DNA of 64,000 nt from Patescibacteria group bacterium (lineage in GTDB: Bacteria > Patescibacteriota > Microgenomatia > PFEM01 > JAHIFH01), in NCBI GenBank assembly GCA_035529375.1, contig DATKWU010000017.1, positions 2,579 through 66,578 of the forward strand, read 5' to 3'. Made by a program: the position numbers and the translations under genes. Under the pieces are notes generated by a model. It made no database searches, was not told the origin of the DNA, and saw only the letters and a program-made list of their open reading frames with translations. Below, in pieces: positions 2,032 through 52,504 of the stretch. The number at the start of each line of letters is the position of its first letter. Position 1 is the stretch's first letter.

Positions 2032-5000
2032 GTTTACCCATCTCCATGTTCACACTGAATATTCCTTGCTTGATGGTCTTTGCAAGATAGACGAACTGCT
2101 TCTCAAGGCGATTGAGTTGGGGATGGATTCAATTGCCCTAACTGACCATGGGGTGATGTATGGCGCGATCAAGTTTTATCTGAAAGCCAGGGATTTTGGG
2201 ATCAAGCCGATTATTGGCATGGAGGCTTATGTGGCCAATCGATCTCGCTTTGATAAACAAGCTAAACTAGGTTCTGATCAATTCCATCTCCTCCTTTTAG
2301 CCAAAAACGAGAAGGGTTATAAGAATTTAATTGAGTTAACCACCAAAGCTCATCTAGAAGGTTTTTATTATCGACCCAGGATTGATTTGGAACTGCTGAA
2401 GAAACATGCCGAAGGTTTAGTTGTCAGTACTGCCTGTCTCCAAGGTCAGATTCCCCAGTTACTAATGGAAGATAATGAAGAAGAAGCCAAGAAAAAAGCC
2501 AAAGATTTTTTAGAGATTTTTGATAAGAATTTTTATCTTGAACTAATGAGCAACAAGGAAAAAGTTCAGGATAAGGTTAATAAGGGTCTGGTCAAATTAT
2601 CTCGGAAATTAGGTATTCCCCTAATTGCCACCAATGACGTTCATTATGTTGAGAAGGATGATGCTGAGGCCCAAGACGCTCTCTTGGCGGTTCAGACTCA
2701 GAGGATGATTAACGATAAGAATCGATTAACGATGATTAACTCGCCAACTTTCTATCTGCGGTCTCAGGAAGAAATGATGCGTCTTTTTAAAGAAGTTCCG
2801 GATGCCATTGAGAACACGAGAAAGATTTCCCGGGTTTGTAACTTAGAAATTCCGATTGGCAACTGGATTTTGCCTAATTATCCTCTACCGGCCGGGGAAA
2901 GCGCCGAAGAGCATTTAAGAAGTTTGGTTAAAGAAAGAATGGCTAATCGCTATCCTAAAGAAATAAAGGAAGTTAAGGAGAGAGTTGAGTACGAGCTCGA
3001 CATTATTTGTAAAAAAGGTTTTGCCACCTATTTTCTGATCGTCCAAGACTTTGTTAACTGGTCAAAGCAGCAAGGTATTAGAGTTGGCCCAGGCCGAGGT
3101 TCAGTCGCTGGTTCAATTATTTCCTATATTTTAAGAATCACTTCAATTGATCCTTTGAGACATAACATACCCTTTGAACGTTTTATGAATCCTCAAAGGC
3201 CAACACCACCGGATATTGATATGGATTTTGCTGATGATCGGAGAGACGAAGTTTTGGATTACGTTATCAATAAATACGGCAAAGATCGAGTGGCCCAGAT
3301 TATTACCTTCAACGTTATGAAGGCTAAAGAATCGGTTCGAGATATTGGTCGGGTTTTAGGCATGCCTTATTCTGAACCCGATAAGGTTGCCAAATTAATC
3401 CCTGTTGGAATGAAAATTGATGAAGCGATTAAAACCATTCCCGAATTGGCGAGCTTGTATCGTCAGGAGAAATATAAAAAATTGCTTAATCTAGCCAAAA
3501 AAGTTGAAGGTGTTTCCCGACACGCCTCGACCCATGCCGCTGGCGTTGTCATTAGTGATAAGGAACTAATCGAATATGTACCTCTCCAAAAAGAAACTAA
3601 AGGTGAAAACATTATCACTCAATATGATATGTATGACTTGGATTTGAATGCGGCCGTTAATGAAGGTGAAGCTTTAGGCCTTCTGAAAATAGACTTCTTA
3701 GGTTTAAGAAATCTTACCACTTTAGAGAAAACCCTGGAGTATTTGAAGCAGACCAGGGGTGAAGAAGTTGATTTATCAGAAATAAATATTGAAGATAGCG
3801 AAGCTTTGAAAATGATTGCCTCAGGCGAAACGACCGGTATTTTCCAGTTAGAAAGTGCCGGCATGCGCCGTTTGGCCAAAAAATTAAAACCAAATAAATT
3901 TTCTGATATTGCCGCGATGGTGGCTCTTTATCGACCTGGGCCGATGCAGTGGATTGACGAATTTATTGAATCTAAAAAAGATCCCCAGAAAATTCGCTAT
4001 CCCCACCCTGATTTAAAAACAATTCTAGCTGAGACTTATGGAATTGCTGTTTATCAGGAGCAGTGTATGCAGATTGCCAATATTATGGCCGGTTACACCA
4101 TGGCCGAAGCCGATCGGTTGCGTTTAGCCATTGGCAAAAAGAAAAAAGCGGTGATGACTAGAGAGAAGAACAAATTTATTCAGGGGGCAATTAAAAACGG
4201 CTATAAAAAAGAAACGGCCGAGAAGATTTTTGCCCTGATTGAAAAATTTGCCGGTTATGGTTTCAACAAAGCCCATTCTACTTCCTACGCCATGATTGCC
4301 TATCAAACTGCTTATTTAAAGGCTCATTATCCGGTGGAGTTTATGGCGGCGTTGCTGACGGCTGAATCCGGTCGTTCTTCTGGTCCAGATAAGGATGAAA
4401 AAGTGACCCAAGCCGTTGAAGAAACCCGGCGAATGGGTATTAGAGTCCTTCGGCCAGACATTAACAAATCTAAAGTTGGTTTTACGATCGAGGATGATCC
4501 TCAATCGCCAGGCGGCAAAGCGATTAGGTTTGGTTTATCAGCTATCAAGAACGTTGGCGAAGCGGCCGTCGAGGTGATTATTCCGTCTCGGGAAGTTGGC
4601 GGATCATTCAATTCCTTAGTTGATTTTTGTCAGCGAGTTGATACCCAAAAGGTCAACCGGAAAGTTTTAGAGAGCTTGATTAAAGCTGGAGCGATGGACA
4701 GTTTTGGTAAAAGAGCGGCGATGCTCTCTGGTTTAGATAAGGTAAGGGTTCAAGGAGCCAAAATCCAAAAAGAAAAGATTAATGGTCAGACAAATCTTTT
4801 TGACGGTCAGGAGGTTGAGGGAAAAGTAAGTTTGAATCCAACCGATCAGCTGCCAGAGATGGAAGAGTTTACTCGCCAAGAGCTTTTATCTTTAGAAAGA
4901 GAATTGCTTGGATTTTATCTAACTGAACATCCTTTAGCGCCTATTCTCAACCAATTACGTCAGCAAAGAACCCATCAGCTTCAACAAATTAATCAGGAAA

Positions 5001-17377: not shown

Positions 17378-17495
17378 CATCCAAAGTAAATAAGAATAAA
17401 AGAGTTTGGAATACGGTCTTTTCTTTGTTGTGCTCGTCGCTTTCCTTGAAGAGTTTTCCACCTTTTGACTAAAGCCTCCCTAGGACAGACAGGAG

Positions 17496-17873
17496 CTATT
17501 TAATAGCAATCATGCTTATTTCGACTTTAGCTCCAAGCGGAAGTTCTTTTACGCAAACCACTTCTCTTGCAGGATAGGGAGTGGAGAAATAGCTCCCATA
17601 TATCTCGTTTATCTTCCCATAAACTGACATGTCAGTAACATAAACTGTTGACTTGACGACATTCGAAAAGGAAACATCTGCTTCTTCAAGAACGGCTTGA
17701 AGGTTTTTCATTATTTGACGCACTTGTTCCTCTAGGGTACCTTCAAGCAGCTTTCCCTCAGGGGTAAGGTAAATTTGTCCTGAAGTAAAAACTAAATTCC
17801 CATCAATAACAGCTTGAGAAAATGGACCTGTTCCTGGAGAGGCAGCCTTAGAAGTTTCAACCTTTACTTTCAT
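17496..17873 (-). CDS. ridA: RidA/YjgF family reactive-intermediate deaminase
   Basis: 125 aa containing GPFSQAVIDGNLVFTSGQI...PAREVVCVKELPLGAKVEI. Confidence 0.85.
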   Translation of the reverse strand: MKVKVETSKAASPGTGPFSQAVIDGNLVFTSGQIYLTPEGKLLEGTLEEQVRQIMKNLQAVLEEADVSFSNVVKSTVYVTDMSVYGKINEIYGSYFSTPYPAREVVCVKELPLGAKVEISMIAIK

Positions 17874-17896
17874 ATGTCTATTGTATCACATTAAAT

Positions 17897-17995
17897 AAGC
17901 CCTCTATTTCGGGCTTTTTAGAATGTGTGACCCTAAGGGGAGTTCAATTAAACACTTTGGAGTATGTGGTGAAGCTAAGAGAGGTGTTTCAAACT
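17897..17995 (+). repeat. Copy 1 of the ~100-bp tRNA-Glu-3'-end-derived repeat
   Basis: Hairpin aagccctctatttcgggctt followed by tttt, then gtgaccctaaggggagttcaattaaacactttggagtatgt. It shares the last ~15 nt of tRNA-Glu (copy 1 has one mismatch). Confidence 0.8.
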
Positions 17996-18059
17996 GATTA
18001 CGATTACAGTTTTCGGTATGATAAAATAAAGGCTAAAGGTTGTTTGTTATAATAAACCA

Positions 18060-18392
18060 ATGAAGAAAACTAGCCATACTTTAAAAGATTTGACTAAATT
18101 GATAATGCATCAAGCTAAAGAAAAAGGGTTCGGAACAAAACCTGAGGAAATAAATGTCCCTGAAAAAATTGCTTTGATTCACAGTGAAATTTCCGAAGCC
18201 TACGAAGCATATAGGAACAAAAAAATTGAAGGCAGGAACGGTTTTAAAGAAGAAATGGGCGATGCAATTCAGAGAATTCTTCATTTAGCAGGAACATTGG
18301 GGATAGATATTGAAGAGGTAATTATTAAGAAGATTAAGAAAAATAAAGGAAGAAAATGGAATTGGGAAAAACTAAATGAAAAGCATGTATAA
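18060..18392 (+). CDS. MazG-like nucleotide pyrophosphohydrolase (small all-alpha NTP-PPase)
   Basis: EKIALIHSEISEAYEAYR...EEMGDAIQRILHLAG is the EExxE/D metal-binding pattern of the MazG family. Confidence 0.65.
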   Translation: MKKTSHTLKDLTKLIMHQAKEKGFGTKPEEINVPEKIALIHSEISEAYEAYRNKKIEGRNGFKEEMGDAIQRILHLAGTLGIDIEEVIIKKIKKNKGRKWNWEKLNEKHV

Positions 18393-18438
18393 GTAACTTC
18401 AAAGTTGTTCTAAGTCGTTTTATAAGTTCTATAAACAA

Positions 18439-18520
18439 AAAGCCCTCTATTTCGGGCTTTTATTTGTTTGGTGACCCCGAGGGGAGTTCAATTAAACACT
18501 TTGGAGTATGTTATGAGATT
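18439..18520 (+). repeat. Copy 2 of the tRNA-Glu-end repeat
   Basis: aagccctctatttcgggcttt...gtgaccccgaggggagttcaattaaacactttggagtatgt. Confidence 0.8.
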
Positions 18521-18600
18521 CAAGAAAATTTTTCAGTCTCGTTCAAATGATGTTGCTGCTTTTTATTCTGTTTGTTGAAGTGCTAGTGTAAAATATTACT

Positions 18601-18987
18601 GTGTCTAAAGAAACCTGCTTGTTCTGCGATAGGAATAACCCAGAAAAACATACCATAATAAGTGAAAATGATTTGTTCTATGGAAGATGGGATAACTTCC
18701 CCGTCTCAGATGGGCATGCAGAAATTGTTCCCAAAAGACACGTTGAATCACTTTTCGAACTAACAGATAATGAGTTAGTTCAATTGTTTGATTTACTTAA
18801 AAAAGTAAAAGATATTATTCAAGATAAATACAGTCCTGATGCTTTTAATATTGGAATAAATGAAGGAGAAGAAGCGGGGAGAACTATTCACCATCTTCAT
18901 GTGCATATTATTCCAAGATATAAAGGTGACGTAGAAAACCCAAGAGGCGGTATAAGACACGTGATTTCAGGGAAAGGAAACTACTAA
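18601..18987 (+). CDS. HIT (histidine triad) family protein
   Basis: HHLHVHIIPR histidine triad. The start codon is GTG. Confidence 0.85.
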   Translation: MSKETCLFCDRNNPEKHTIISENDLFYGRWDNFPVSDGHAEIVPKRHVESLFELTDNELVQLFDLLKKVKDIIQDKYSPDAFNIGINEGEEAGRTIHHLHVHIIPRYKGDVENPRGGIRHVISGKGNY

Positions 18988-19095
18988 AAAGCCCTTTATT
19001 TCGGAATATTTTGATAGTGTGACCCCGAGGGGAGTTCAATTAAACACCTTGGAGTATGTAGTGAGGTTGAGGGAGGTGTTTCAAGTGAGTTCTGG
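18987..19095 (+). repeat. Copy 3 of the tRNA-Glu-end repeat
   Basis: aaagccctttatttcgg...gtgaccccgaggggagttcaattaaacaccttggagtatgtagtgaggttgagggaggtgtttcaa. Confidence 0.8.
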
Positions 19096-19132
19096 AGCCG
19101 AAGCCTTCTTTTTAGGTTAACAATAAAAACCA

Positions 19133-19669
19133 CTACTTTTTCGTGTTAAACCTACTTAGGATAGTATTTAATTCGGGTCTTAATAGGGCTATTGTATAAG
19201 CTCCCGTATGACCAGGAGACTTTACAAAGTAAATAGTTCTAACCTCTGCCTCACTGAAAAAAGGCCAAGGGAAGTCTCTTCTATTCCTTGTTAATATTAA
19301 AGAATTCGTTAATATTGATGTTGTGGCAATAATTATATCTCCCATATCAATATTACTCTTAAGCATTTTATCATTTCTGAACAAAGTGTATAGTTGAGCT
19401 GATCCAATCAAAACTTGTTCGCTAATGAAATATCTGTTGAAATTTTTAAGGAATTTAAATATCTCGTTTTCTTGTTTTTTGGTGGTATTCCTAAGTATTT
19501 CATGAACAGAAACATCTGAAATTGCCATCCCAAAGCCTCTCCTCATCAATTCAGTAATATATGCAATAAAACTAGTAGCGGTTGGCATTCTTCCGGTGTA
19601 TTGGAGGATGTTTGTATCTAAAATGACGAACTGATCTGGAAGTTTTGGTTGAGATGGCTTTTCATTCAT
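19133..19669 (-). CDS. PIN-domain (VapC-like) toxin
   Basis: FVILDTNIL at the N-terminus, then DIIIATTS and LTRNRRDF (conserved acidic residues). Confidence 0.65.
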   Translation of the reverse strand: MNEKPSQPKLPDQFVILDTNILQYTGRMPTATSFIAYITELMRRGFGMAISDVSVHEILRNTTKKQENEIFKFLKNFNRYFISEQVLIGSAQLYTLFRNDKMLKSNIDMGDIIIATTSILTNSLILTRNRRDFPWPFFSEAEVRTIYFVKSPGHTGAYTIALLRPELNTILSRFNTKK

Positions 19670-19898
19670 TTTGTTCTTGGTCAGGATGCTTGGGCTCTTG
19701 GGGTAAAGGAATTATTTCGTCTTCTACCGCTTTTTCCATTTCGCTAATAATTTCTTTAGATGGTGTTACCGTTCCACTACTCGGAATAGAAGTGCTATTT
19801 ATGTCTGTTTTCCCTTTTGGCGGAATAGAAATTGATGCCTCAGGGGGCTTTTCTGGAAATACTTTTTCGCCTTTTGGTTTTGGTTGTGTGTCGTCCAT
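19662..19898 (-). CDS. Putative cognate antitoxin (78 aa, Pro/Glu-rich)
   Basis: It lies immediately upstream of the PIN gene and overlaps it by 8 nt. It has no recognisable fold. Confidence 0.3.
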   Translation of the reverse strand: MDDTQPKPKGEKVFPEKPPEASISIPPKGKTDINSTSIPSSGTVTPSKEIISEMEKAVEDEIIPLPQEPKHPDQEQNE

Positions 19899-20037
19899 AA
19901 GTTAATTCTATCATAAATTAGTATAATTAGCCTGTGAAGTTGACCTTTAAGCAAAGACTGTTTATTGCGAATTATCTGAAGACTGGCAATGCTACTAAGG
20001 CAGCAGCCAGGGCCTACAATGTTAAAAGCAGGAACGT

Positions 20038-20070
20038 AGCTGGCGAGTATAGACGCTATTCGAACCTATT
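20038..20070 (+). repeat. Copy 1 (divergent) of the 32-nt cassette-boundary repeat
   Basis: tggcgagtatagacgctattcgaacctatt. Compare the copies at 21781 and 22861. Confidence 0.6.
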
Positions 20071-20483
20071 TAGTCAGTAATATTAGTTATTAATTTATCT
20101 ACTTTCCTTTTTATCAGAATAAAAATATTTTCTGAGAGTTTTAGGTATTCTATCTCCCTTTTTATGTCTAAGGGCTTCCCATTAAGATTAGCGTCATCAA
20201 AGTCAGGTAAATCCCAGATTTTATACTTCTTAGGGGTGGAAAGTTTGCTTCGGCAATACTCATAATTCTTTTTACCAATAAAAACAACAAGGTCAGCTTT
20301 TAAAAGTTGGTTATTGCTTGTTTCTTTCCATTCATTACTCATATAGGGAATTAATTTATTTCTGTTTGTCAATCGTTGGGCGTACCATGTTATCGGTCCC
20401 TTATGTTGGGCCGATGCTTGTGTACCACTGGAGGATACAAAGATACTAGGGATTTTTTTTAGAACGCAAATATGCTTCGGCAA
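20070..20483 (-). CDS. Hypothetical protein
   Basis: 137-aa ORF. The gene layout in this array is compact and codon usage is typical. Confidence 0.4.
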   Translation of the reverse strand: MPKHICVLKKIPSIFVSSSGTQASAQHKGPITWYAQRLTNRNKLIPYMSNEWKETSNNQLLKADLVVFIGKKNYEYCRSKLSTPKKYKIWDLPDFDDANLNGKPLDIKREIEYLKLSENIFILIKRKVDKLITNITD

Positions 20484-20571
20484 GCCTACTTCGGAATATA
20501 TTTCCCGTACAAACGAAGTGAATATGAAATGCTTTATTTTTCATAGGTTAAGTTTATAAGCTGAGCTCCTC

Positions 20572-20583
20572 GGTCTGGACCCG
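20572..20583 (+). repeat. Short repeat ggtctggacccg (copy 1)
   Basis: The same 12-mer recurs at 21173-21184 in the equivalent inter-cassette position. Confidence 0.4.
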
Positions 20584-20703
20584 TTTTATCCCGTAGCTAT
20601 TTCTTCTTTTTCTGGCTAGCTTTCGTACCATCAGAAAAGGTTGCTTCTAGCTTGGTAAAAACATTCGTAGGGTGCAAATCTCTTTGATCAAAAGCTAGTC
20701 TCT

Positions 20704-21126
20704 TTATGCCTGGCTCAACGAATATTTGTGTTTTTTTCTTTTCCCTTTTTCTCCGGCATATACGACGAGTCGTAAACCTACTTTTGATTTAGTCAGTAAA
20801 GAGGTAACAAAATATTTATTGTCTTTTGAGGATATTTTTTCCTCTGCTATTGGCAAAGCTTCATCGTCGAGATTGATAAATTTCATATTTTTATAAATTC
20901 TGGAGTTTAATTTTCTCTTTACATATTTTTTCTCATCATGATATTCCCTTGGAAGAGAGTAAATTTTTTTACACTCCTCGCACTTGAGTTTGTGTGTATA
21001 TATTTCTCCTTCTTCATAATAGGGTTCGAGTTGAAGAAAATCTTTTGGGCACAACGGCACGGGGTTTCGCGAAACCTTTCCGATAACCCATTTTATTTTG
21101 TCAATTATTATTCCTTGATCTGCCAT
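20704..21126 (-). CDS. Hypothetical protein with a CxxD...CEEC zinc-ribbon-like motif
   Basis: 140-aa ORF containing LCPKDF...KCEECKK. Confidence 0.4.
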   Translation of the reverse strand: MADQGIIIDKIKWVIGKVSRNPVPLCPKDFLQLEPYYEEGEIYTHKLKCEECKKIYSLPREYHDEKKYVKRKLNSRIYKNMKFINLDDEALPIAEEKISSKDNKYFVTSLLTKSKVGLRLVVYAGEKGKRKKHKYSLSQA

Positions 21127-21172
21127 TTATTAGTAAATAATAATTAATCTACCCGATTTTGCTGAACAGACT

Positions 21173-21184
21173 GGTCTGGACCCG
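21173..21184 (+). repeat. Short repeat ggtctggacccg (copy 2)
   Basis: Identical 12-mer. Confidence 0.4.
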
Positions 21185-21228
21185 CTTGGTTCCATAAGTT
21201 ACTTTTATTTTAGATTAGAATTGCTTTT

Positions 21229-21768
21229 CTACCCAAATCTAATAGCACCTTTATAGATATACCCTGGTTCGTGTATTTCTATTGTATTTTTCAATCTACC
21301 TTGAACTGCTAAGTTAGCTGACATAGAGTCTAGCCAAACTTCTACAGCTTTGCACACGTCCTTGCAAAAAACTTGAACATTCAGCTGCAAAAATGATTTT
21401 TTCTCACCGTTAAAAATGCAGTCCTTAATAAGATTACGGTGTGCACCTTTAGTCAAAAATACAAAATGCTCTAGAACCTCCTGTTTTTTTTGGTCGGAAA
21501 TATCATCCTTCCCTTGATGTAGAAGTGCACACCTCAAAGCATAGCAATCCTTGCCCGACAGAAAACCATTATATTGGGGTAAATTTTTTTCAACCCAATC
21601 AGAATATTTTTCACCTGAAGTTTTTTCGTGTTCAAGTGCAGCACAGATGTCTGGAAGGGTCAAAGAGACAAACAAAGCAACGTACCAGTTTTGGTTATCT
21701 AATGCTTTATAAACTGAATCAATAATTTTTTGCATATTTTTTTCTGAATTATGAGGGTAGGGTTGCAA
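21229..21768 (-). CDS. Hypothetical protein with an Rx4H motif (HEPN-like); paralog of the 23005-23547 product
   Basis: ALRCALLHQG fits Rx4H. The C-terminal FLQLNVQVFCKDVCKAVEVWL aligns with TLQLDMNLFCQDVLDSIDKLYEV of the paralog. Confidence 0.4.
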   Translation of the reverse strand: MQPYPHNSEKNMQKIIDSVYKALDNQNWYVALFVSLTLPDICAALEHEKTSGEKYSDWVEKNLPQYNGFLSGKDCYALRCALLHQGKDDISDQKKQEVLEHFVFLTKGAHRNLIKDCIFNGEKKSFLQLNVQVFCKDVCKAVEVWLDSMSANLAVQGRLKNTIEIHEPGYIYKGAIRFG

Positions 21769-21780
21769 GCCTACCCAATT

Positions 21781-21814
21781 TGGCTGGCGAGTGTGGACAC
21801 TATTCGAACCTATT
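21781..21814 (+). repeat. Copy 2 of the 32-nt cassette-boundary repeat
   Basis: tggctggcgagtgtggacactattcgaacctatt, followed by a conserved aagagaacctgtttttgttcc-like tail. Confidence 0.65.
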
Positions 21815-21864
21815 TTATCACAACAAGAGAACCTGTTTTTGTTCCTAATTTTAATTCTTAATTA

Positions 21865-22758
21865 TTATTGCTTAATTTTCGCGGCTACTTCGTTTTTATA
21901 TTGGAACTCTGGACAAAATGGAGGTATCAGATTTCTGTTTCGCATTAAATCTCTCATTCTCTTCATTACTTCAAAATCCGTATCAGAAGAAATCCAACGC
22001 TTCATTACTTCTTCATCCACCCAGAGTGTTTTTAGTTGATAAATGGAAGAATAATATTTTCTAAAAAAGTCTATGCCATTTTGGGGACTATCGAAAAAGA
22101 CAGTACAATATGAAGCAAAATACTCTTTGAAACCGTCAATTGTAAAGATGTTTCTTGCATAATAATATAGTTTGACTGTGTCAATATCGCTAAAATCTCC
22201 TTCAATCGGCTCACCATATTCATTCAACATGTCTGGGCTAATTAAAGGAACATCTGCAATATCCAGAGGAACAGCATGACCATCATTCGAAGCTATTTGA
22301 TATACTGCGCAGTTTTTTTCAACACTATCTAACAAGGCAAAACTTCGCGAAGGTAAAGCGGAACAGTTTGCAAAAACATAATTTAGATTTCCAATTTCTA
22401 AATCTAACTGACCAGACTGTTGTTTAAGTTCCTCTACAGGCTTACCCTGAATTGAGGCAAGGCAGATTGGACTATCAGGAACTACCTCTTCCCCCAATGG
22501 CTGTCTGGTTTTATGAACAATGTCATCAAATAAAGCAGAGTCGTAGTAATCACGGAATTCTCGTGCTTTTTTCTGAAAGTCTTCCTCAGTCTGACCTTGA
22601 CCTCGTTGAATATAAGCTTCACGAAGAACATCTACAGCCCTAGTTAAATTTTCCTGTAGTAGTCTTTGGGGCCTCTCAGCAACTTGCCGGACACTATCAC
22701 TTCGGATAAGTCTAGCTTGTTCTAGAATAGCATTTGTTTTTATCTCTTTATCATCCAT
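21865..22758 (-). CDS. Hypothetical protein (297 aa)
   Basis: Long ORF in the cassette-like array with no recognisable motif. Confidence 0.4.
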   Translation of the reverse strand: MDDKEIKTNAILEQARLIRSDSVRQVAERPQRLLQENLTRAVDVLREAYIQRGQGQTEEDFQKKAREFRDYYDSALFDDIVHKTRQPLGEEVVPDSPICLASIQGKPVEELKQQSGQLDLEIGNLNYVFANCSALPSRSFALLDSVEKNCAVYQIASNDGHAVPLDIADVPLISPDMLNEYGEPIEGDFSDIDTVKLYYYARNIFTIDGFKEYFASYCTVFFDSPQNGIDFFRKYYSSIYQLKTLWVDEEVMKRWISSDTDFEVMKRMRDLMRNRNLIPPFCPEFQYKNEVAAKIKQ

Positions 22759-22860
22759 TTCTCATATTTTACTCAAGTTGAAGAATTTTTTAAAGATTTT
22801 GTGAGGTTTAAAAGCTTCGAACCGTCCTACTTCGGTGGTAATTTTCAAGGCTAAAATTTT

Positions 22861-22894
22861 GGGCTGGCGAGTGTGGACACTATTCGAACCTATT
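22861..22894 (+). repeat. Copy 3 of the 32-nt cassette-boundary repeat
   Basis: gggctggcgagtgtggacactattcgaacctatt, followed by aagagccttgttttattccc. Confidence 0.65.
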
Positions 22895-23004
22895 GGTTAG
22901 GCAAGAAAGAGCCTTGTTTTATTCCCATCTATGCCTAATCCGAAAGGACTACTTGGTTTTACTGACAAATCGGTCTAGAATGTTTTAATCCTTATAACTA
23001 ACGT

Positions 23005-23547
23005 CTATTTTAATTCTTTAAAGAAATCAAAATCCGAAGCTTTAATATATTTCTTGTTTCTGTTAAGGATACTTGTCTTGTTTAGTGGAGTAGATTGTTG
23101 AGAAATCGCCTTAGCAAATTGTTCTTTATAAGATTCTGTCAACACTTCATAGAGCTTATCTATTGAATCAAGCACGTCTTGGCAAAAGAGATTCATATCT
23201 AATTGAAGTGTGCTGTCCACAAAATACAAGTGAAACTTCCTTTGTATATCTAGCGGATTATTTGTATGGGAAATGTTAAATATCCATCCAATATCTTTTT
23301 TCTTATACTTAAAGTTCTTAGGGAAGTGCTGATGTAGTAGTCCGTGTCGATAAACAAGCGTTATAAATACAGCATATTTAGCGTAACGAGGGTCGATTTT
23401 TGACAGAACTAATTTTAAATAGGTTGTAATATTTTCTGTAGTTGCGCGAGATTCGCCAGTTATAAAAGAACCAAGTCCATCAATTTCTGGGAATAGTAGT
23501 CTTGGAATCGCAAAAAATCCTGTCATGTTAGCAGAATACACTGGCAA
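23005..23547 (-). CDS. Hypothetical Rx4H-motif (HEPN-like) protein; paralog of the 21229-21768 product
   Basis: YRHGLLHQ fits Rx4H. The C-terminal region is shared with the paralog. Confidence 0.4.
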   Translation of the reverse strand: MPVYSANMTGFFAIPRLLFPEIDGLGSFITGESRATTENITTYLKLVLSKIDPRYAKYAVFITLVYRHGLLHQHFPKNFKYKKKDIGWIFNISHTNNPLDIQRKFHLYFVDSTLQLDMNLFCQDVLDSIDKLYEVLTESYKEQFAKAISQQSTPLNKTSILNRNKKYIKASDFDFFKELK

Positions 23548-23592
23548 TACAATTCCAACATCTTTCTCTATAGATTTTTTAATATTATCGAG

Positions 23593-23865
23593 ATGCTCTA
23601 TCCTCGTCCGCTCTCCACGGCCATCCTGGAAGTTGGGTTACCTTGGGTTTTCAGAGCGATATATGAAGGGAAAATGTCGGGATTAGTCATTGGTGTAATT
23701 TTCACCTTGGCGTCTGGCATCCCGGCACTTGTTTTTCTCTTCATGCTCCATGAGATGCAGGCAGGGCTATCTATGGCTTTCTTGTCCATAGGTATGGCTA
23801 TTTCCTGCATTGTGGGGACCTTAATAGACAGATGGGAAATCAAACAAGTCCTTGGACATCTGTAG
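23593..23865 (+). CDS. Small two-TM membrane protein (higher local GC)
   Basis: 90-aa hydrophobic ORF. It may be spurious. Confidence 0.25.
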   Translation: MLYPRPLSTAILEVGLPWVFRAIYEGKMSGLVIGVIFTLASGIPALVFLFMLHEMQAGLSMAFLSIGMAISCIVGTLIDRWEIKQVLGHL

Positions 23866-24041
23866 CGGTTTCAGCTATCTGGCTATCTCTACGATGGCAT
23901 AATAGACTCGCCACTATTGAGCCATCAGAACGAAGGTCCTAGATTAAGGAGGGACAAAACTATGCCTATTGGGTAGCGTTTTGTTCCTCCTAAACTCACT
24001 TTTTCCTTTCCACAAACCATCTCTGGGAATTTTACACAGAA

Positions 24042-24150
24042 AAAGCTCTCTATCTCTGGCTTTTTAGAATGTGTGACCCAGATGGGAGTTGAAACAAACA
24101 CTTTGGAGTATATAGTGAGGCTTCAGGAGATATTTCAGCCTGTGGACTCT
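24042..24150 (+). repeat. Copy 4 of the tRNA-Glu-end repeat (diverged)
   Basis: aaagctctctatctctggcttttt...gtgacccagatgggagttgaaacaaacactttggagtatatagtgaggcttcaggagatatttca. Confidence 0.7.
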
Positions 24151-24167
24151 GTGGTATACTATGGTCA

Positions 24168-25112
24168 ATGAAAATTGTGATTTTCAAACCTAAGTCGGGT
24201 TTTTCTCCAAAACAGCAAAAACAAATTGCCTCACTCGGCAAAGTTGTTTACACCAAAACAAACCAAGAACTTCCAATGAAAAAACTCCTAAAAATTGCTA
24301 AGGGTGCAGAAATCATTGGCGTTGACCCTGATCCCCTTGGTGGTTTTGAAAAGGCTAAAGAGAAGCTAACCAAAATAATGGAGTCTTTGCCCAAACTTAA
24401 GGGTGTCTGTCTTTCCACAACTTCTTTTGGCTGGATCGATTTAGATTATTGTAGTAAGCGGGGCATTACGGTTAGTAACGTTCCAGGCTATTCAAGAGAG
24501 TCTGTTGCTGAACACGCCTTAGCCCTATTGCTTTGTTTGGCTAAAGGAATTATTACCAGCGATCGGAAAACCCAAAGGGGAAAATACAAGCTAGAAATGG
24601 GTTTTGAACTAAAAGGAAAAACGCTTGGCATTATTGGTCTGGGTAATATTGGTAGCAGAATGGCCGAACTTGGCCAGGGAATAGGCATGAAAGTCATTGC
24701 TTATAATCGAAGTCCAAAGAAAATGAAGGGAGTCCAGATGAAATCTTTAAATGAATTATTAAAAAGATCAGATACAATTTCTCTGCACACCACACATGAG
24801 GAAAGTAATGATGAAATGGTTAATGAAAAAATGTTATCTAAAATGAAAGACTGTGTAATTATTGTGAATACAGTTGATAGAGAGATAGTTGATGAAAGCG
24901 CTATGGCAGAAGCCTTAAAGTCTGGAAAAGTCCGTGCCTATGCCTATGAGGGCGAAGATTTGACTCGTACACCTTTAGCTAAAATAGAAAACGCTATAGG
25001 GGTAAAGGCGTTTGCTTACTACACTAAAGAAGCGCTAGATAATTTATATGAAATTTGGGTTGGTAATCTTGTAGCCTTGCGTAAAAGTAAGCCTCGAAAC
25101 CTCGTAAGTTAA
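24168..25112 (+). CDS. D-isomer-specific 2-hydroxyacid dehydrogenase family (NAD-binding)
   Basis: Rossmann motif GIIGLGNIGSRMAELG plus a catalytic His/Glu region, 314 aa. Confidence 0.85.
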   Translation: MKIVIFKPKSGFSPKQQKQIASLGKVVYTKTNQELPMKKLLKIAKGAEIIGVDPDPLGGFEKAKEKLTKIMESLPKLKGVCLSTTSFGWIDLDYCSKRGITVSNVPGYSRESVAEHALALLLCLAKGIITSDRKTQRGKYKLEMGFELKGKTLGIIGLGNIGSRMAELGQGIGMKVIAYNRSPKKMKGVQMKSLNELLKRSDTISLHTTHEESNDEMVNEKMLSKMKDCVIIVNTVDREIVDESAMAEALKSGKVRAYAYEGEDLTRTPLAKIENAIGVKAFAYYTKEALDNLYEIWVGNLVALRKSKPRNLVS

Positions 25113-25131
25113 TTGGATCAATATCAATTGA

Positions 25132-25235
25132 AAAAAGTCCTCTATTTCGGTTTTTTTAGAATGTGTGACCCCAAGGGGAGTTCAATTAAACACTTTGAAA
25201 TATGTAATAATGGTTCAGGAGATATTTGAACCTCT
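25132..25235 (+). repeat. Copy 5 of the tRNA-Glu-end repeat
   Basis: aaaagtcctctatttcgg...gtgaccccaaggggagttcaattaaacactttgaaatatgtaataatggttcaggagatatttgaa. Confidence 0.75.
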
Positions 25236-25308
25236 AACTATTTATCAGTCGGTTTGTGCTTTTAAATGAGCATCATAGTTCTTTTGTAGTTATGTTAATA
25301 TAAAGTCA

Positions 25309-26112
25309 ATGGAGATAACGTTTTTAGGCACTGGTGGTGGTACAAACGAAGAAAGATTTAAAACTTGTATTTTTTTACCTCTTAATGAGAAGAACAATTT
25401 AATTTTGGACGTAGGTGGCGGAACCGAAATAATTAACCAATTCGCCAAGGCCAAGATTAATCCTGCTTGTGTAAATCACATTTTTATTAGTCATACTCAT
25501 TTTGACCACTGTTTAGGTTTGCCCGCCTTTTTGTTTTATCTTGTGACCGAAAAGAAAGAAGAAATGCCAGGAAAAATGGGGATTTACTCTAACAAAAGAA
25601 TAATCAGTGATTTAAAAGAAGTTTTGAGAATTACTGGGGCTGGCGCACTTAAGCGTTGGGGAGATAGATTAATCTGGATTGATACAGGATTAGAAAAACC
25701 AGTTAGAATAACAAGAGATTGCAGTTTGCTTGCCTTCCCTGCCAAAGGAGGGCAAGAATTGAAAGAACAAGATTTAAGCTGTTTAATTAAACTTTCTCGC
25801 CTCCAAAAATCCATTCTTTTTACAGGTGATACTACCCCAAATGAGTATTTAGAAAAATATGCTCGAGGTGTTGATACATTGATTCACGAAGCAATTCTTA
25901 CCCATAAAAATGTCGAGCTTGCTCATAGGCATGGTCATTCTACATCTCAAGATGCAGGTAAACTTGCTCAACAAGCAGGAGTAAAACAGTTAGTGTTAAC
26001 CCATATCTATCGGGAAAGTATTGTTAAAGAAAAATCTCTTCTTGAGGAGACTATGAAATATTATTCAGGACCTGTTCAACTAGCTCATGACTTTGAAACA
26101 ATTAATATTTAA
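25309..26112 (+). CDS. MBL-fold metallo-hydrolase (RNase Z / beta-lactamase-like)
   Basis: ISHTHFDHCLGLP motif, 267 aa. Confidence 0.75.
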   Translation: MEITFLGTGGGTNEERFKTCIFLPLNEKNNLILDVGGGTEIINQFAKAKINPACVNHIFISHTHFDHCLGLPAFLFYLVTEKKEEMPGKMGIYSNKRIISDLKEVLRITGAGALKRWGDRLIWIDTGLEKPVRITRDCSLLAFPAKGGQELKEQDLSCLIKLSRLQKSILFTGDTTPNEYLEKYARGVDTLIHEAILTHKNVELAHRHGHSTSQDAGKLAQQAGVKQLVLTHIYRESIVKEKSLLEETMKYYSGPVQLAHDFETINI

Positions 26113-26145
26113 AAAAGCCCTTTATTTCGGGCTTTTTGGAATGTG
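26112..26145 (+). repeat. Copy 6 of the hairpin module, fused directly to the genuine tRNA-Glu gene
   Basis: aaagccctttatttcgggcttttt ggaatgtgt runs straight into the tRNA 3' end. Confidence 0.75.
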
Positions 26146-26218
26146 TGACCCCGAGGGGAATCGAACCCCTGTTTTCAGGATGAAAACCTGACGTCCTAGA
26201 CCGCTAGACGACGGGGCC
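26146..26218 (-). tRNA. tRNA-Glu (anticodon UUC); CCA not encoded
   Basis: The reverse complement GGCCCCGTCGTCTAGCGGTCTAGGACGTCAGGTTTTCATCCTGAAAACAGGGGTTCGATTCCCCTCGGGGTCA folds as a cloverleaf with acceptor, D, anticodon (loop TTTTCAT) and T (TTCGATT) arms. Confidence 0.85.
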
Positions 26219-26230
26219 TGGTGAGCCCAA
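26215..26230 (+). repeat. 16-bp direct repeat ggcctggtgagcccaa (left copy, includes the first 4 nt of tRNA-Glu)
   Basis: An identical 16-mer recurs at 28365-28380. Confidence 0.6.
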
Positions 26231-26485
26231 GAGGGACTCCTACGAACACTTTTACCCTTATCTTCTAACTCTTTATCGTGGCTTTAATTATATCACAAAG
26301 GTTTATTCTTATCATATTGTCTAAGAAACCAAAAAATAAGAGATAGTATGAATGGAATCATTACTACTAAAACTTTATTCAATTGATTCAGAAAAATTGC
26401 CATCATTGAACAATGATAGTAACTTTTTTTAGTTTAAGGCAAATTAAATTTTTGCTAGTTCGTGATAAAATAAGGACAAAGTAAG

Positions 26486-27121
26486 ATGCCAAATAAGAAA
26501 GCGCCTGATCTCACTAAACGAACTAAACCACTTTTTGCCTTCTTTGATGTAGAAAACGTTCGAAACAGTGTAGAGGAATATGGATATATTGACCTTAACT
26601 ATCCTAAAATTATTGGCTGGTTGAAAAATAAAAGAAGTGTTAGTCGGATTTATCTCTATGCATCTGCAGAACCAGGAGATACAATTAAAAAGAAAAAGTA
26701 TTTAGATTTGCAGAAGATTCCTGGTTGTTATGTGTCCATTAAAAGGATTATGGCCTACAAGCAAAAACCATGGCCCCTCGAGACAATTTGCCCAAGTTGT
26801 CAACATTCATTTGTAAGAAAAATTTACATAAAAGATCACAAAAAGGGAAACTGCGATGCGGAGATGACTTTAGATATTGTTAGGTTTGGAGTTAGGAAAA
26901 AATATAGTGGAATTATTGTCTTTTCTGGTGACGGTGATTTTGCAAGAGTTTACGAATATGTTGCGGAAGAATTAAAAAAGCCCGTTATTCTTTTTGCACC
27001 AGATAAGGTGCCAGGTAAAAAAAGAACATCGTCGAGACTAAAGAAACTAGCGAATAACGGGACAATCAAACTAGAAAGCTTAAAGGGGTTGATGTTTCAT
27101 TATGGACAGAAAGAAGAATAA
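26486..27121 (+). CDS. NYN-domain (LabA/PIN-like) RNase family protein with an inserted CxxC...HxxxxxC zinc motif
   Basis: FFDVENV...YASAEPGD...GNCDAEMTLDIV...IIVFSGDGDF are the acidic residues typical of the NYN family. Confidence 0.65.
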   Translation: MPNKKAPDLTKRTKPLFAFFDVENVRNSVEEYGYIDLNYPKIIGWLKNKRSVSRIYLYASAEPGDTIKKKKYLDLQKIPGCYVSIKRIMAYKQKPWPLETICPSCQHSFVRKIYIKDHKKGNCDAEMTLDIVRFGVRKKYSGIIVFSGDGDFARVYEYVAEELKKPVILFAPDKVPGKKRTSSRLKKLANNGTIKLESLKGLMFHYGQKEE

Positions 27122-27280
27122 AAAAAGCCCCCCGAAGGCGACTTTTTTGATTGAGTGGATATACTTTATCACATTAAACTATCTTTGTCAACCTTATACC
27201 ACCTTATATTATCTTATCATATTTTGTGTTAGTTTAAATTGTATTAATGTCGTAAAAGTGCTAGAATTGGTTTCAAACAT

Positions 27281-27856
27281 ATGCCTCGAGAAATCATTTT
27301 CAGGTTAATGCCAGCCAATCTGAAGAGAAAACTAGAAAACTACCTTAATAAACCCTCAACTTCACGTCTCGAAGCCAGAAATAAACTTATTGTCAGTCTT
27401 TTTTATTATTGCGGTTTTAGAACATGGATGCTAACAGATCTAAAAAAGAAAAACTACGACCCAAAAAATAAAATGCTTTATTTTCGTCTTCGAACAAATT
27501 CTCTCAAAGAGAATAGTATACTTCTAGACGAATCTGTTTTTAAACTGATAGATTTTTTAACTAGATCATTTTCGAATCCAGAGTGGCCATTAATTATGAG
27601 TTTTAAAATTGATAGCCCGATAAATAAGCCACTATCTCCTCGCCAGATCCAAAGGGTTACCAAAAATATTTTGTTATCACTTGGTTTTAAAAAAAATATT
27701 CCACCAAGAATGTTGAGGCATAATGTTGGTATTAACTTAACCAAGGAAAAACTAAGACATAAATCGTTAAATAAATTAATTGGCAGAGTTTCTCCTTGGG
27801 TTTTTACAGAATACAAAAAAAGAGCGGGTAACTTTAAGAAAGTTGGGAAAATTTAA
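27281..27856 (+). CDS. Short tyrosine recombinase-like protein (catalytic domain only; no N-terminal core-binding domain)
   Basis: EARNKLIVSLFYYCGFRTWML resembles the box I Arg region. PRMLRHNVG resembles HxLRH. IGRVSPWVFTEY resembles LGHxxxxxTxxYTH with the Tyr. The product is only 191 aa. Confidence 0.5.
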   Translation: MPREIIFRLMPANLKRKLENYLNKPSTSRLEARNKLIVSLFYYCGFRTWMLTDLKKKNYDPKNKMLYFRLRTNSLKENSILLDESVFKLIDFLTRSFSNPEWPLIMSFKIDSPINKPLSPRQIQRVTKNILLSLGFKKNIPPRMLRHNVGINLTKEKLRHKSLNKLIGRVSPWVFTEYKKRAGNFKKVGKI

Positions 27857-28093
27857 AATTTAGAATTATTGGCTTATTGCCAATATTATTCAAAAAAAAG
27901 AGTAACTGTGTTCGATATTTGACGAAAAATTACATTGGGTAGGTTTTCATTATCGAACACTTAAATTAAATGAAATTTTTGAAGCGTTTAGGGCTGTAGA
28001 TAGGACTATTCAGAAGAAACCTTTTTCACAATTATCCACAGAAATAGTAAGATGTAAACCTGTCAGTAATCAGTTCGCACCAATTATTAAGCT

Positions 28094-28324
28094 TTATTGC
28101 TTTATACCACTGTCTATTACAACATCGCCTGTGTCTTCGTCAATATGACCCATAACTATTTCATATTCGCTATGCTCTACTATCCATTTAGCTCCTGGTG
28201 CTAATTCAGATAATTCAGGTGGAATACCCATTTCTTCTAGTTCTCTAGCATTTTGTTCAGCGCTAATTCTAGCAATTTCTCCTGTTGATTCCTCCGATGA
28301 CGTTGGTTTTATTGTTTCTGACAA
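28094..28324 (-). CDS. Hypothetical acidic protein (76 aa)
   Basis: ORF with no recognisable motif. Confidence 0.3.
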   Translation of the reverse strand: MSETIKPTSSEESTGEIARISAEQNARELEEMGIPPELSELAPGAKWIVEHSEYEIVMGHIDEDTGDVVIDSGIKQ

Positions 28325-28364
28325 TTTTATTCACCCCCTGTCAATTTTTCTTAATTCGCTTTTA

Positions 28365-28380
28365 GGCCTGGTGAGCCCAA
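28365..28380 (+). repeat. 16-bp direct repeat ggcctggtgagcccaa (right copy)
   Basis: Identical to 26215-26230. Confidence 0.6.
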
Positions 28381-50629: not shown

Positions 50630-50764
50630 ATGAGTAAAGAGCAATTTTCAAGAAATAACAAGAAGGAAAAGGGTAAAAAAGAGGACCGGATGAAGATATT
50701 TGCCAACTTCCTCGTCGACAGAATTATCGAAGAGCAGAATAAGGCTAAATTAATTGGGGAATAG
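50630..50764 (+). CDS. Small basic protein (44 aa) between the promoter/operator and the serine recombinase gene
   Basis: MSKEQFSRNNKKEKGKKEDRMKIFANFLVDRIIEEQNKAKLIGE. It is below the ORF-track cutoff. Confidence 0.3.
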   Translation: MSKEQFSRNNKKEKGKKEDRMKIFANFLVDRIIEEQNKAKLIGE

Positions 50765-50768
50765 TCAA

Positions 50769-52493: not shown

Positions 52494-52504
52494 GCTACGG
52501 GCCC
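52433..52504 (-). tRNA. tRNA-Lys (anticodon UUU)
   Basis: The reverse complement GGGCCCGTAGCTCAGCGGTAGAGCACCTGCCTTTTAAGCAGGGTGTCGAAGGTTCGATTCCTTCCGGGCTCA folds as a cloverleaf with T loop TTCGATT and anticodon loop CTTTTAA. Confidence 0.85.

Follow-up and report, generated by a model that had tools for sequence, protein, structure and literature searches.

A window of 64,000 nucleotides from a Patescibacteria group bacterium (NCBI GenBank assembly GCA_035529375.1, contig DATKWU010000017.1, positions 2,579 to 66,578) contains, between 17.4 and 26.2 kb, an array of small gene units separated by repeats that include the 3' end of a tRNA-Glu gene. Positions given here are those of the window unless a contig is named. 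The array is anchored at an intact, attB-like tRNA-Glu(UUC) gene, which was located by ARAGORN and Rfam on the minus strand (26145/6–26218). The last 15 nucleotides of this gene, read on the plus strand as GTGACCCCGAGGGGA, form the core of the repeats. The core is the reverse complement of tRNA positions 60–74 and covers the last base of the T-loop, the 3' strands of the T-stem and acceptor stem, the discriminator, and one extra base. With up to two mismatches it occurs six times in the window, against 0.03 expected occurrences. All six matches (17927, 18471, 19019, 24073, 25165, and 26145) are on the plus strand within 17.9–26.2 kb, and their start-to-start distances are 544, 548, 5054, 1092, and 980 nucleotides. 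The six tRNA-end repeats claimed in a preliminary description of the window thus correspond to five full modules and the copy at the tRNA gene itself.

Each of the five modules, as delimited by alignment and a profile search of the window, is about 105 nucleotides long. It begins with a hairpin flanked by an A-tract and a T-tract, followed by a spacer of 9–11 nucleotides, the core, and a sequence of about 55 nucleotides, named X here (GTTCAATTAAACACTTTGGAGTATGT.GTGAGGCT.CAGGAGGTGTTTCAA). The hairpins score as bidirectional intrinsic terminators. The first 26 nucleotides of X (GTTCAATTAAACACTTTGGAGTATGT) are found four times in the window with up to three mismatches, with none expected, and the fifth copy of X, at 24088, is more diverged. 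At the tRNA gene, only the hairpin, spacer, and core are present (26110–26159, plus strand); they form the real terminator and 3' end of the tRNA and continue into the tRNA body instead of X. The alignment agrees with the earlier proposal that the repeats share the tRNA-Glu end and then diverge from it. Because the tRNA copy lacks X, X must have arrived with the inserted DNA. The modules are confined to 17.4–26.2 kb of the window, without the dispersed scattering of repetitive extragenic palindromic sequences or miniature inverted-repeat transposable elements. Contigs from JGI and ENA assemblies contain identical DNA (100% over 20.6 kb), which rules out an artefact of a single assembly.

The outermost module is truncated (17385–17437, plus strand) and consists of a degenerate hairpin and the spacer CTTTTCTTTGTTGTG, breaking after the GTG of the core; its spacer is identical over 15 nucleotides to that of module copy L026_5565 from a related contig. 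The truncated module on the left and module 1 on the right (17892–17997, core with two mismatches) bound a minus-strand gene of the RidA/L-PSP family (17496–17873; Pfam PF01042, E 3.7e-35), which therefore also belongs to the array. A MazG-like pyrophosphatase gene (18060–18392, plus strand; PF03819; phrog_3301 pyrophosphatase, E 1.6e-20) separates module 1 from module 2 (18435–18542), the core of which matches the tRNA exactly. Module 2 is followed by a gene for a HIT-family hydrolase (18601–18987, plus strand; PF01230, E 3.5e-22) and module 3 (18984–19088), whose core is likewise exact and whose hairpin is degenerate. Domain and repeat searches of the large unit beyond it identified seven minus-strand genes (19133–23547), encoding a PIN/VapC-like protein with a 78-residue partner and five proteins of unknown function. 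To their right is the plus-strand remnant of a membrane-protein gene (23590–24004), which is intact in relatives and has about 70–73% nucleotide identity to L026 1389–1837 and L032 9545–9985. Module 4 (24038–24143), with the core GTGACCCAGATGGGA, is the most diverged of the five. The last two units, separated by module 5 (25130–25235), hold plus-strand genes for a D-2-hydroxyacid dehydrogenase (24168–25112; PF02826, E 1.4e-40) and, next to the tRNA, a metallo-beta-lactamase (MBL)-fold hydrolase similar to RNase Z and Apyc1 (25309–26112; PF12706). All modules are on the plus strand. It was proposed earlier that each repeat immediately follows the stop codon of a plus-strand gene; this is accurate except for module 1, which comes after the beginning of the RidA gene on the minus strand, and module 4, which follows the membrane-protein remnant. 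The single-gene units of 0.5–1.1 kb described previously account for most of the array, but not for the seven-gene, 5-kb unit between modules 3 and 4.

The module family is also present in other genomes. A degenerate 20-mer from the start of X was scanned over species-representative genomes and JGI metagenomes and recovered many contigs; a profile built from the five copies of the window then verified about 25 additional distinct copies in them. They are located in contigs L004/L028, L011 (identical to L032), L026/L029, L034, L036, L039, L054, and L056, and are clustered and co-oriented. Conserved neighbouring genes fix the position of three arrays: those of the window, L004, and L032. The gene order in L032 is RuvC, tRNA-Lys, tRNA-Glu directly abutting it, six modules in 6 kb, and DAGK and MBL genes that also flank the array of the window. 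The left flank of L004 is 90.5% identical to that of the window over 2.8 kb, comprising the DAGK, MBL, and Zn-finger genes, and the homology ends at position 17401, where the first, degenerate module of L004 starts. Between the modules of L032 are genes for a methyltransferase, a SET-domain protein, a SnoaL-like protein, a glyoxalase, a 2-thiouracil desulfurase, a NUDIX hydrolase, and unknown proteins; the cassettes of L004 are all unknowns. Not one cassette is common to the window, L004 (about 90% flank identity), and L032 (about 72%), and the locus and the modules are kept in all three. The complete difference in content at about 90% flank identity implies fast turnover. Since the repeats persist in relatives at tRNA-Glu and enclose other genes there, they are not local duplications of a terminator; the finding is the opposite of relatives with the same genes in the same order and no repeats, which the preliminary description had named as grounds for abandoning its proposal.

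The modules have a single orientation at each locus, towards tRNA-Glu wherever the tRNA is in view (the window and L011/L032). These two loci have an intact tRNA at one end and co-oriented direct repeats of its 3' end at the junctions, which are the hallmark of accretion. The genes between the modules run in both directions in all arrays. The fixed orientation of the modules, together with the mixed orientation of the genes, argues against a role as promoter, untranslated region, or terminator and for a directional recombination site. The glyoxalase genes of L026 and L032 are 88% identical, compared with 78% for the flanking genes. They have different neighbours, and in both genomes there is a relic of the X side of a module at one end of the gene and a relic of the hairpin side at the other. 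No recombinase domain was found in the genes between modules in the window, L032, L004, and L026.

Several observations concern the provenance of these contigs and their cargo. In L054, two modules (104–782) point away from a tRNA-Lys gene (4471–4543) that has no abutting tRNA-Glu, from which an inversion or rearrangement between the two tRNA loci in the lineage of L054 is deduced. Contigs L004 and L011 were deposited as parts of metagenome-assembled genomes of 'uncultured Gammaproteobacteria', yet L004 has 90% flank identity to the Patescibacteria window and L011 is syntenic with it; they are likely mis-binned contigs of an epibiont. Sharing of a 2-hydroxyacid dehydrogenase cassette between the window and L026 was considered and rejected, the proteins being just 36% identical. 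The MBL gene next to the tRNA also matches the Pfam Apyc1 anti-Pycsar family. A second array holding this gene was not found, and its 70–79% identical homologs are in ordinary chromosomal contexts without modules. The homologs in L066, L067, and L068 have operon-like surroundings, for example upstream of TldD/PmbA, and that of L066 is in an islet beside tRNA-Val, together with methyltransferase and MazG-like genes. Such contexts offer hints of how chromosomal genes may become cassettes.

The conservation of the modules is uneven. Almost all of the approximately 25 copies, including those from genomes with about 72% flank identity, carry the same 13-mer directly after the core (TTCAATTAAACAC), and X as a whole is conserved better than the core. 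The 13-mer is part of a 16-bp imperfect palindrome in X (GAGTTCAA/TTAAACAC), and a third similar half-site (GTGTTTCAA) is positioned about 30 bp further on. In copies L036_706, L034, L039, and L004_5435, the core and X are kept and GTGACCC is preceded on its left by unrelated sequence, which places the break at the edge of the core. The halves formed of hairpin and spacer cluster by genome (TTTTTAGAATGT in the window, TTTTCTTTGTTTT in L032/L026, and TTTTTAGGTATCG in L004), whereas two subtypes of X (..TGAGGGAGGTG.. and ..TTCAGGAGATA..) are spread across genomes. The left half of module 2 is of the L032/L026 type, with 91–94% identity to the copies from those contigs and 70–76% to the other copies of the window. 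Lineage-specific left halves combined with X subtypes that cross lineages indicate that the modules are chimeric about the core. This is expected if the mobile unit is delimited as core-X, genes, hairpin, and spacer, and the exchange takes place in the core. The glyoxalase gene common to L026 and L032, with its relics of both module sides, supports such a unit.

The modules do not fold into the imperfect hairpins of integron attC sites, which had been suggested as an alternative origin of the array. When either strand of each of the five modules was folded as single-stranded DNA, z-scores ranged from 0 to −1.8, and the terminator hairpin alone proved stable. RNAalifold analysis of both strands of 21 copies gave a negligible consensus structure, a positive covariation term, and no covarying helix, and no Rfam family matched the modules at gathering or E-value thresholds. 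In the absence of a significant fold or covariation, X is not attC-like. It is conserved as primary sequence and is most simply regarded as a putative protein-binding site.

Two further sequence features were noticed within the array. A −10-like element, TGnTAnAAT, identified by eye, precedes each of the MazG, HIT, 2-hydroxyacid dehydrogenase, and MBL genes (18045–18053 and before 18601, 24168, and 25309), its end being only 6–8 nucleotides from the start codon. There is no Shine-Dalgarno sequence between the element and the start codon, which suggests that the cassette transcripts are leaderless. In the 5-kb unit (19900–23000), copies of two further repeat families, D3 and E, lie between the seven minus-strand genes. 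D3 (GGCTGGCGAGTGTGGACACTATTCGAACCTATT) is present in three copies (20041, 21782, and 22862), two of which are identical over 33 nucleotides; E (GGTCTGGACCCG) is present in two copies (20572 and 21173) with weakly similar flanks. No copy of either family was detected in any other locus compared. The reverse complements of D3 and E resemble tRNA 3' ends (GGTTCGAAT...CTCGCCA and GGGTCCAGACCA), and by this resemblance the repeats could be att remnants of other tRNA-targeting units. Searches of the unknown genes against PADLOC and PHROGs provided nothing useful for annotating defence functions.

Beyond tRNA-Glu, the window contains two mobile elements. A 16-bp direct repeat, GGCCTGGTGAGCCCAA, is present at 26215–26230 and 28365–28380, both on the plus strand. 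The first copy abuts tRNA-Glu; it is a remnant of the 3' end of tRNA-Lys, and comparison with L011/L032 identifies TGGTGAGCCC as that end. In L011/L032, an intact tRNA-Lys abuts tRNA-Glu and represents the empty site, whereas in the window the functional tRNA-Lys(UUU) gene (52432–52504, minus strand; ARAGORN and Rfam) is parted from tRNA-Glu. The repeats, the abutting tRNAs of L011/L032, and the distant functional tRNA-Lys together indicate that region 26231–52431 is formed of two elements inserted in tandem in the 3' end of tRNA-Lys. Element B (26231–28364, 2.1 kb), for which the two repeats are the left and right att sites, encodes an NYN-domain protein (26486–27121, plus strand; PF01936), a tyrosine recombinase of 191 residues that consists of the catalytic domain only (27281–27856, plus strand; PF00589, 41.6 bits relative to a cut-off of 27.1), and a 76-residue open reading frame (ORF). 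The right repeat is the junction with element A (28381–52431, about 24 kb), the gene content of which is that of a conjugative-element-like island: type IV secretion genes, a relaxase, a coupling protein, a large serine recombinase, and defence genes, along with MmeI-like restriction-modification, HEPN, SNase, and Schlafen/AlbA_2 genes. The serine recombinase ORF (50754–52493) runs into the tRNA-Lys gene. A Logan contig, L003, is identical to window positions 26145–28378 and ends in the right repeat, 2 bases short of the element B boundary, which suggests population variation at the junction of the two elements.

The short recombinase of element B had been put forward as a candidate enzyme of the array, possibly of integron type. 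It is a tyrosine recombinase; however, it is located in a separate element with a different att site, at tRNA-Lys, and is therefore not obviously the enzyme of the array. Nor is it an integron integrase: its best NCBIfam match, NF040815 (XerA/'integron integrase'), scores 47 bits relative to a cut-off of 220, and it is far under every NCBIfam cut-off. The protein aligns to residues 110–244 of XerA, its PDB matches are XerA and XerH, and its size is that of FimB-type invertases. In the alignment of its family, the L-R-H motif (R146, H147) and Y178 are invariant, and the first arginine (R47) is present in the window protein and replaced by lysine in two homologs. The family is rare, with nine clusters in a set of 5.8 billion proteins and four representatives at E ≤ 1e-30 among 1.84 billion. 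A scan found no relatives in viral contigs. Most contigs with homologs are 1–2.5 kb long and uninformative; L059 and L063/L064 are the only ones that show context. In L059, homolog P0003 (45% identical) adjoins a single GIY-YIG gene (906–1354) flanked by tRNA-Glu(CUC) and an exact 15-nucleotide copy of its 3' end. The inner ends of this unit are inverted repeats of each other. In L063 (1640–4260; also L064), homolog P0005 (39% identical) is part of its own single-gene array, in which a 27-nucleotide repeat (AAACCTRCNTAACCCGTCGGGTTG) holding a 13-nucleotide palindrome separates the integrase gene, a gene encoding 91 residues, and a pair encoding a DUF6602 protein and a 111-residue protein.

The attachment site of element B is similar to the modules of the array. 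Its circular junction (attP), as reconstructed, can be aligned to the consensus of the modules along about 55 nucleotides with a score of 30, compared with 15 ± 2.5 for shuffled sequences, none of 2000 of which reached it. The two share TTC..GCTTTTAG, TG.GTGA.CCC..AG.GGGA, and then AACACTTT, at the same spacing. An nhmmer profile search with the reconstructed att sites gave no match, and pairwise alignment with shuffling was used instead.

The reading that we favour, with a probability of roughly 55%, is that the 17.4–26.2 kb region is a hypervariable array anchored at tRNA-Glu and built by repeated site-specific integration of small units that lack an integrase and are served by a recombinase in trans. 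Serial integration at the tRNA 3' end, as originally proposed, fits the co-oriented modules, the retention of the locus with different genes, and the breaks at the core edge. The unit would consist, on the plus strand, of core-X, one or a few genes, a terminator hairpin, and a spacer. Its circular form would have an attachment site of hairpin, spacer, core, and X, so that a single type of attP would be common to all units. Recombination inside the 15-nucleotide core would regenerate the tRNA, to which the incoming unit would supply a terminator. Older units would be pushed outward, and each junction would become a hybrid module of the hairpin of the previous unit, the core, and the X of the new one. 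X may be the arm bound by the recombinase. The best candidate for the enzyme acting in trans is the rare family of catalytic-domain-only tyrosine recombinases that includes the product of 27281–27856; the likeness of the element B attP to the modules and the settings of the homologs in L059 and L063 link it indirectly to the array. The array may be active at present.

Several results weigh against such a mechanism. No circular junction, no empty array site, and no pair of genomes with the same cassettes reordered were seen, and look-ups of the exact NYN, MazG, and MBL proteins for strain-level junction variants returned only contigs identical to the window. Two short Logan contigs (L003 and L062) terminate precisely at the tRNA 3' end with a k−1 overlap, but relatives occurring alongside, with the tRNA sequence in common, can account for this. 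The family of the candidate recombinase is very rare, whereas the module occurs in at least eight contig lineages; the element encoding the candidate uses the tRNA-Lys end as its own att, and L032 has no recombinase within 14 kb. The similarity of the element B attP to the modules is in part the likeness of the tRNA-Lys and tRNA-Glu 3' ends. The lineage-specific left halves of the modules can also be explained by gene conversion. Furthermore, the central CG of the core has drifted to TG, CA, or TA in many copies (CCCTAAGGGG and similar), and many joints may consequently be inactive.

The same core decay would be at home in a graveyard of conventional islands or prophage-like elements that integrated in tandem at tRNA-Glu, each once with its own integrase, and were reduced through deletions to one or a few genes and an attR site. 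Tandem islands parted by partial tRNAs and accompanied by degraded remnants are documented (10.1101/2020.12.28.424599), two elements are already in tandem at tRNA-Lys in the window itself, and decayed modules are at hand (17385–17437, L004_3115, L032_6259, and the L026 relics). This history is nevertheless unlikely: three arrays of six to seven units each contain no integrase pseudogene or mobility fragment between the modules, and the units are single, intact, apparently functional genes of small enzymes, with sizes of 0.5–1.1 kb recurring. Dead remnants are not expected to have kept X and its invariant 13-mer in lineages whose flanks are about 72% identical. The content differs wholly at about 90% identity, which points to fast turnover. 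A second possibility is that the modules, seeded by one integration, act as portable homology of about 100 bp for RecA, making the locus a hotspot of homologous recombination that needs no dedicated recombinase. The modules are direct repeats with 75–95% identity over about 100 bp, their left halves are homogenised within each genome in the manner of gene conversion, the L032 array has no recombinase nearby, and between L026 and L032 genes seem to have been rearranged even inside units, where no intact repeat is present. We consider this explanation improbable, because homologous recombination does not require, and would not maintain, a fixed 13-mer and a palindrome in X next to a drifting core and spacer. 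Breakpoints also fall exactly at the core edge in several copies, left and right halves have discordant relationships, and the strict anchoring at the tRNA 3' end and the att likeness to an integrase-bearing element point to site-specific chemistry, at least at the origin.

It is very improbable that the module is instead an expression or RNA element, that is, a terminator with a regulatory sequence, small RNA, or small ORF that travels with accessory genes and matches the tRNA only secondarily. Such a role would suit the hairpin, a good bidirectional intrinsic terminator, and the minus-strand AAACAC/GTGTTT arms, which could pair through G-U wobble. A frame that starts at the GTG of the core (for example, 17927–18050, encoding VTPRGVQLNTLEYVVRLREVFQ...) is open for 31–41 codons in most copies, with conservative-looking substitutions. 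However, variation by codon position is 45/28/55, a weak bias, and 17 of 52 alleles are synonymous, compared with 12 of 49 and 11 of 50 in the other frames. The small ORF was rejected on these unconvincing tests, and its openness past the conserved part is at the level of chance for AT-rich DNA. A consensus scan of X gave fewer promoter-like sites than shuffled sequences, with only the diverged copy 4 scoring, so there is no convincing promoter. The lack of a significant fold, the positive covariation term, and the absence of an Rfam family speak against an RNA, and the orientation of the modules follows the tRNA and not the adjacent genes.

The genomes of Patescibacteria, also known as the candidate phyla radiation (CPR), are very small, dependence on hosts is presumed for these bacteria, and their gain and loss of accessory genes are poorly known. 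If repeated integration built the array, the locus would be a compact, dedicated landing pad at which accessory enzymes are swapped between close relatives and the core genome is left undisturbed. The cargo would include nucleotide-housekeeping hydrolases, dehydrogenases, methyltransferases, and a toxin-antitoxin pair, and each arriving unit would also furnish its target tRNA with a terminator. Even if the array is no more than a collection of decayed islands, it clearly marks a recombination hotspot in CPR genomes. No description of such an arrangement in Patescibacteria was found in the literature. A paper on Gracilibacteria 'hypervariation' concerns a protein repeat and is unrelated.

Sedentary chromosomal integrons, such as the Vibrio superintegron, are arrays of cassettes with VCR-type attC sites anchored at attI. 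The integron integrase IntI is a tyrosine recombinase of about 320 residues with a specific additional domain, and attC sites are imperfect palindromes (R''-L''...L'-R') that fold as single strands. Integron cassettes are mostly promoterless and co-oriented, with a common promoter at the attI end. The array resembles a sedentary integron in outline, with mostly single-gene units, a homogeneous repeat typical of the lineage, fast turnover, and a fixed anchor at one end. The cargo of small enzymes, unknown proteins, and a toxin-antitoxin-like pair is also integron-like, a tyrosine recombinase gene is positioned just past the anchor, and the content varies between relatives while the repeats persist. 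In contrast, the sole tyrosine recombinase nearby has 191 residues and a catalytic domain only, without an IntI-type protein; the repeats lack an attC-like fold and include a bidirectional intrinsic terminator; the anchor is a tRNA gene and not attI; and the cassette genes have both orientations and apparently their own −10-like elements. A working integron-like capture system, in which the tRNA-Glu 3' end acts as attI, a double-stranded core and X site of about 70 nucleotides acts as attC, and the minimal recombinase of the neighbouring tRNA-Lys element moves single-gene cassettes in trans, is possible but doubtful. If it is true that the short recombinase moves the cassettes, the system would be a second, independently evolved answer to the integron problem, assembled from the end of a tRNA and a site in double-stranded form, and would provide a very small recombinase with a site of about 70 nucleotides.

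Among systems moved by Xer-type recombinases encoded elsewhere are the pdif (XerC/D-site) modules of Acinetobacter plasmids and the integrative mobile elements exploiting Xer (IMEX), which are bounded by short sites. The array shares with them its single-gene units and an Xer-like candidate recombinase. It differs from pdif modules in the lack of a recognisable dif-like 11-6-11 site; its sites are direct repeats of about 70–105 nucleotides that derive from a tRNA end and are chromosomal and tRNA-anchored. Cis-mobilizable elements (CIMEs) of streptococci are att-flanked segments without an integrase, in tandem with integrative and conjugative or integrative and mobilizable elements; they are usually decayed, several kb long, and limited to one or two per site. 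The units described here are likewise flanked by att sites and free of mobility genes, the att is related to that of element B, and mobilisation in trans is presumed. Unlike CIMEs, many of them are stacked as single-gene units in one array, and element B, which carries the integrase, is at the adjacent tRNA-Lys and not at the same att.

Typical tandem tRNA elements have their own integrase, unlike the units in the window, L032, L004, and L026. The ssrA islands of Dehalococcoides each have their own recombinase. The published account (PMC3146451) describes tandem islands with direct repeats that arose as elements inserted again and again into a small RNA gene at its 3' end; these islands differ from the array in being multi-gene and tmRNA-anchored. 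In Prochlorococcus, tycheposons integrate at tRNAs and older elements are pushed outward, which results in islands with partial tRNA copies between elements and scattered remnants and partial tRNAs in a streamlined genome (Hackl et al., 10.1101/2020.12.28.424599). Tycheposons are several kb long and encode their own integrase and replication or packaging modules (10.1101/2020.12.28.424599). The array has the tRNA anchor, the partial tRNA copies between units, and the degraded remnants in common with them. In contrast to tycheposons, its units are 0.5–1.1 kb long, carry no integrase or replication or packaging genes, share X of about 55 nucleotides beyond the tRNA identity, and number up to six or seven at one tRNA. 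The array is closest in kind to tRNA-anchored tandem islands and to non-autonomous elements of the CIME type, and it is not an integron. Four traits set it apart from tandem islands and CIMEs: the single-gene units free of mobility functions, their number of up to seven per site, the arm of about 55 nucleotides, and the built-in terminator.

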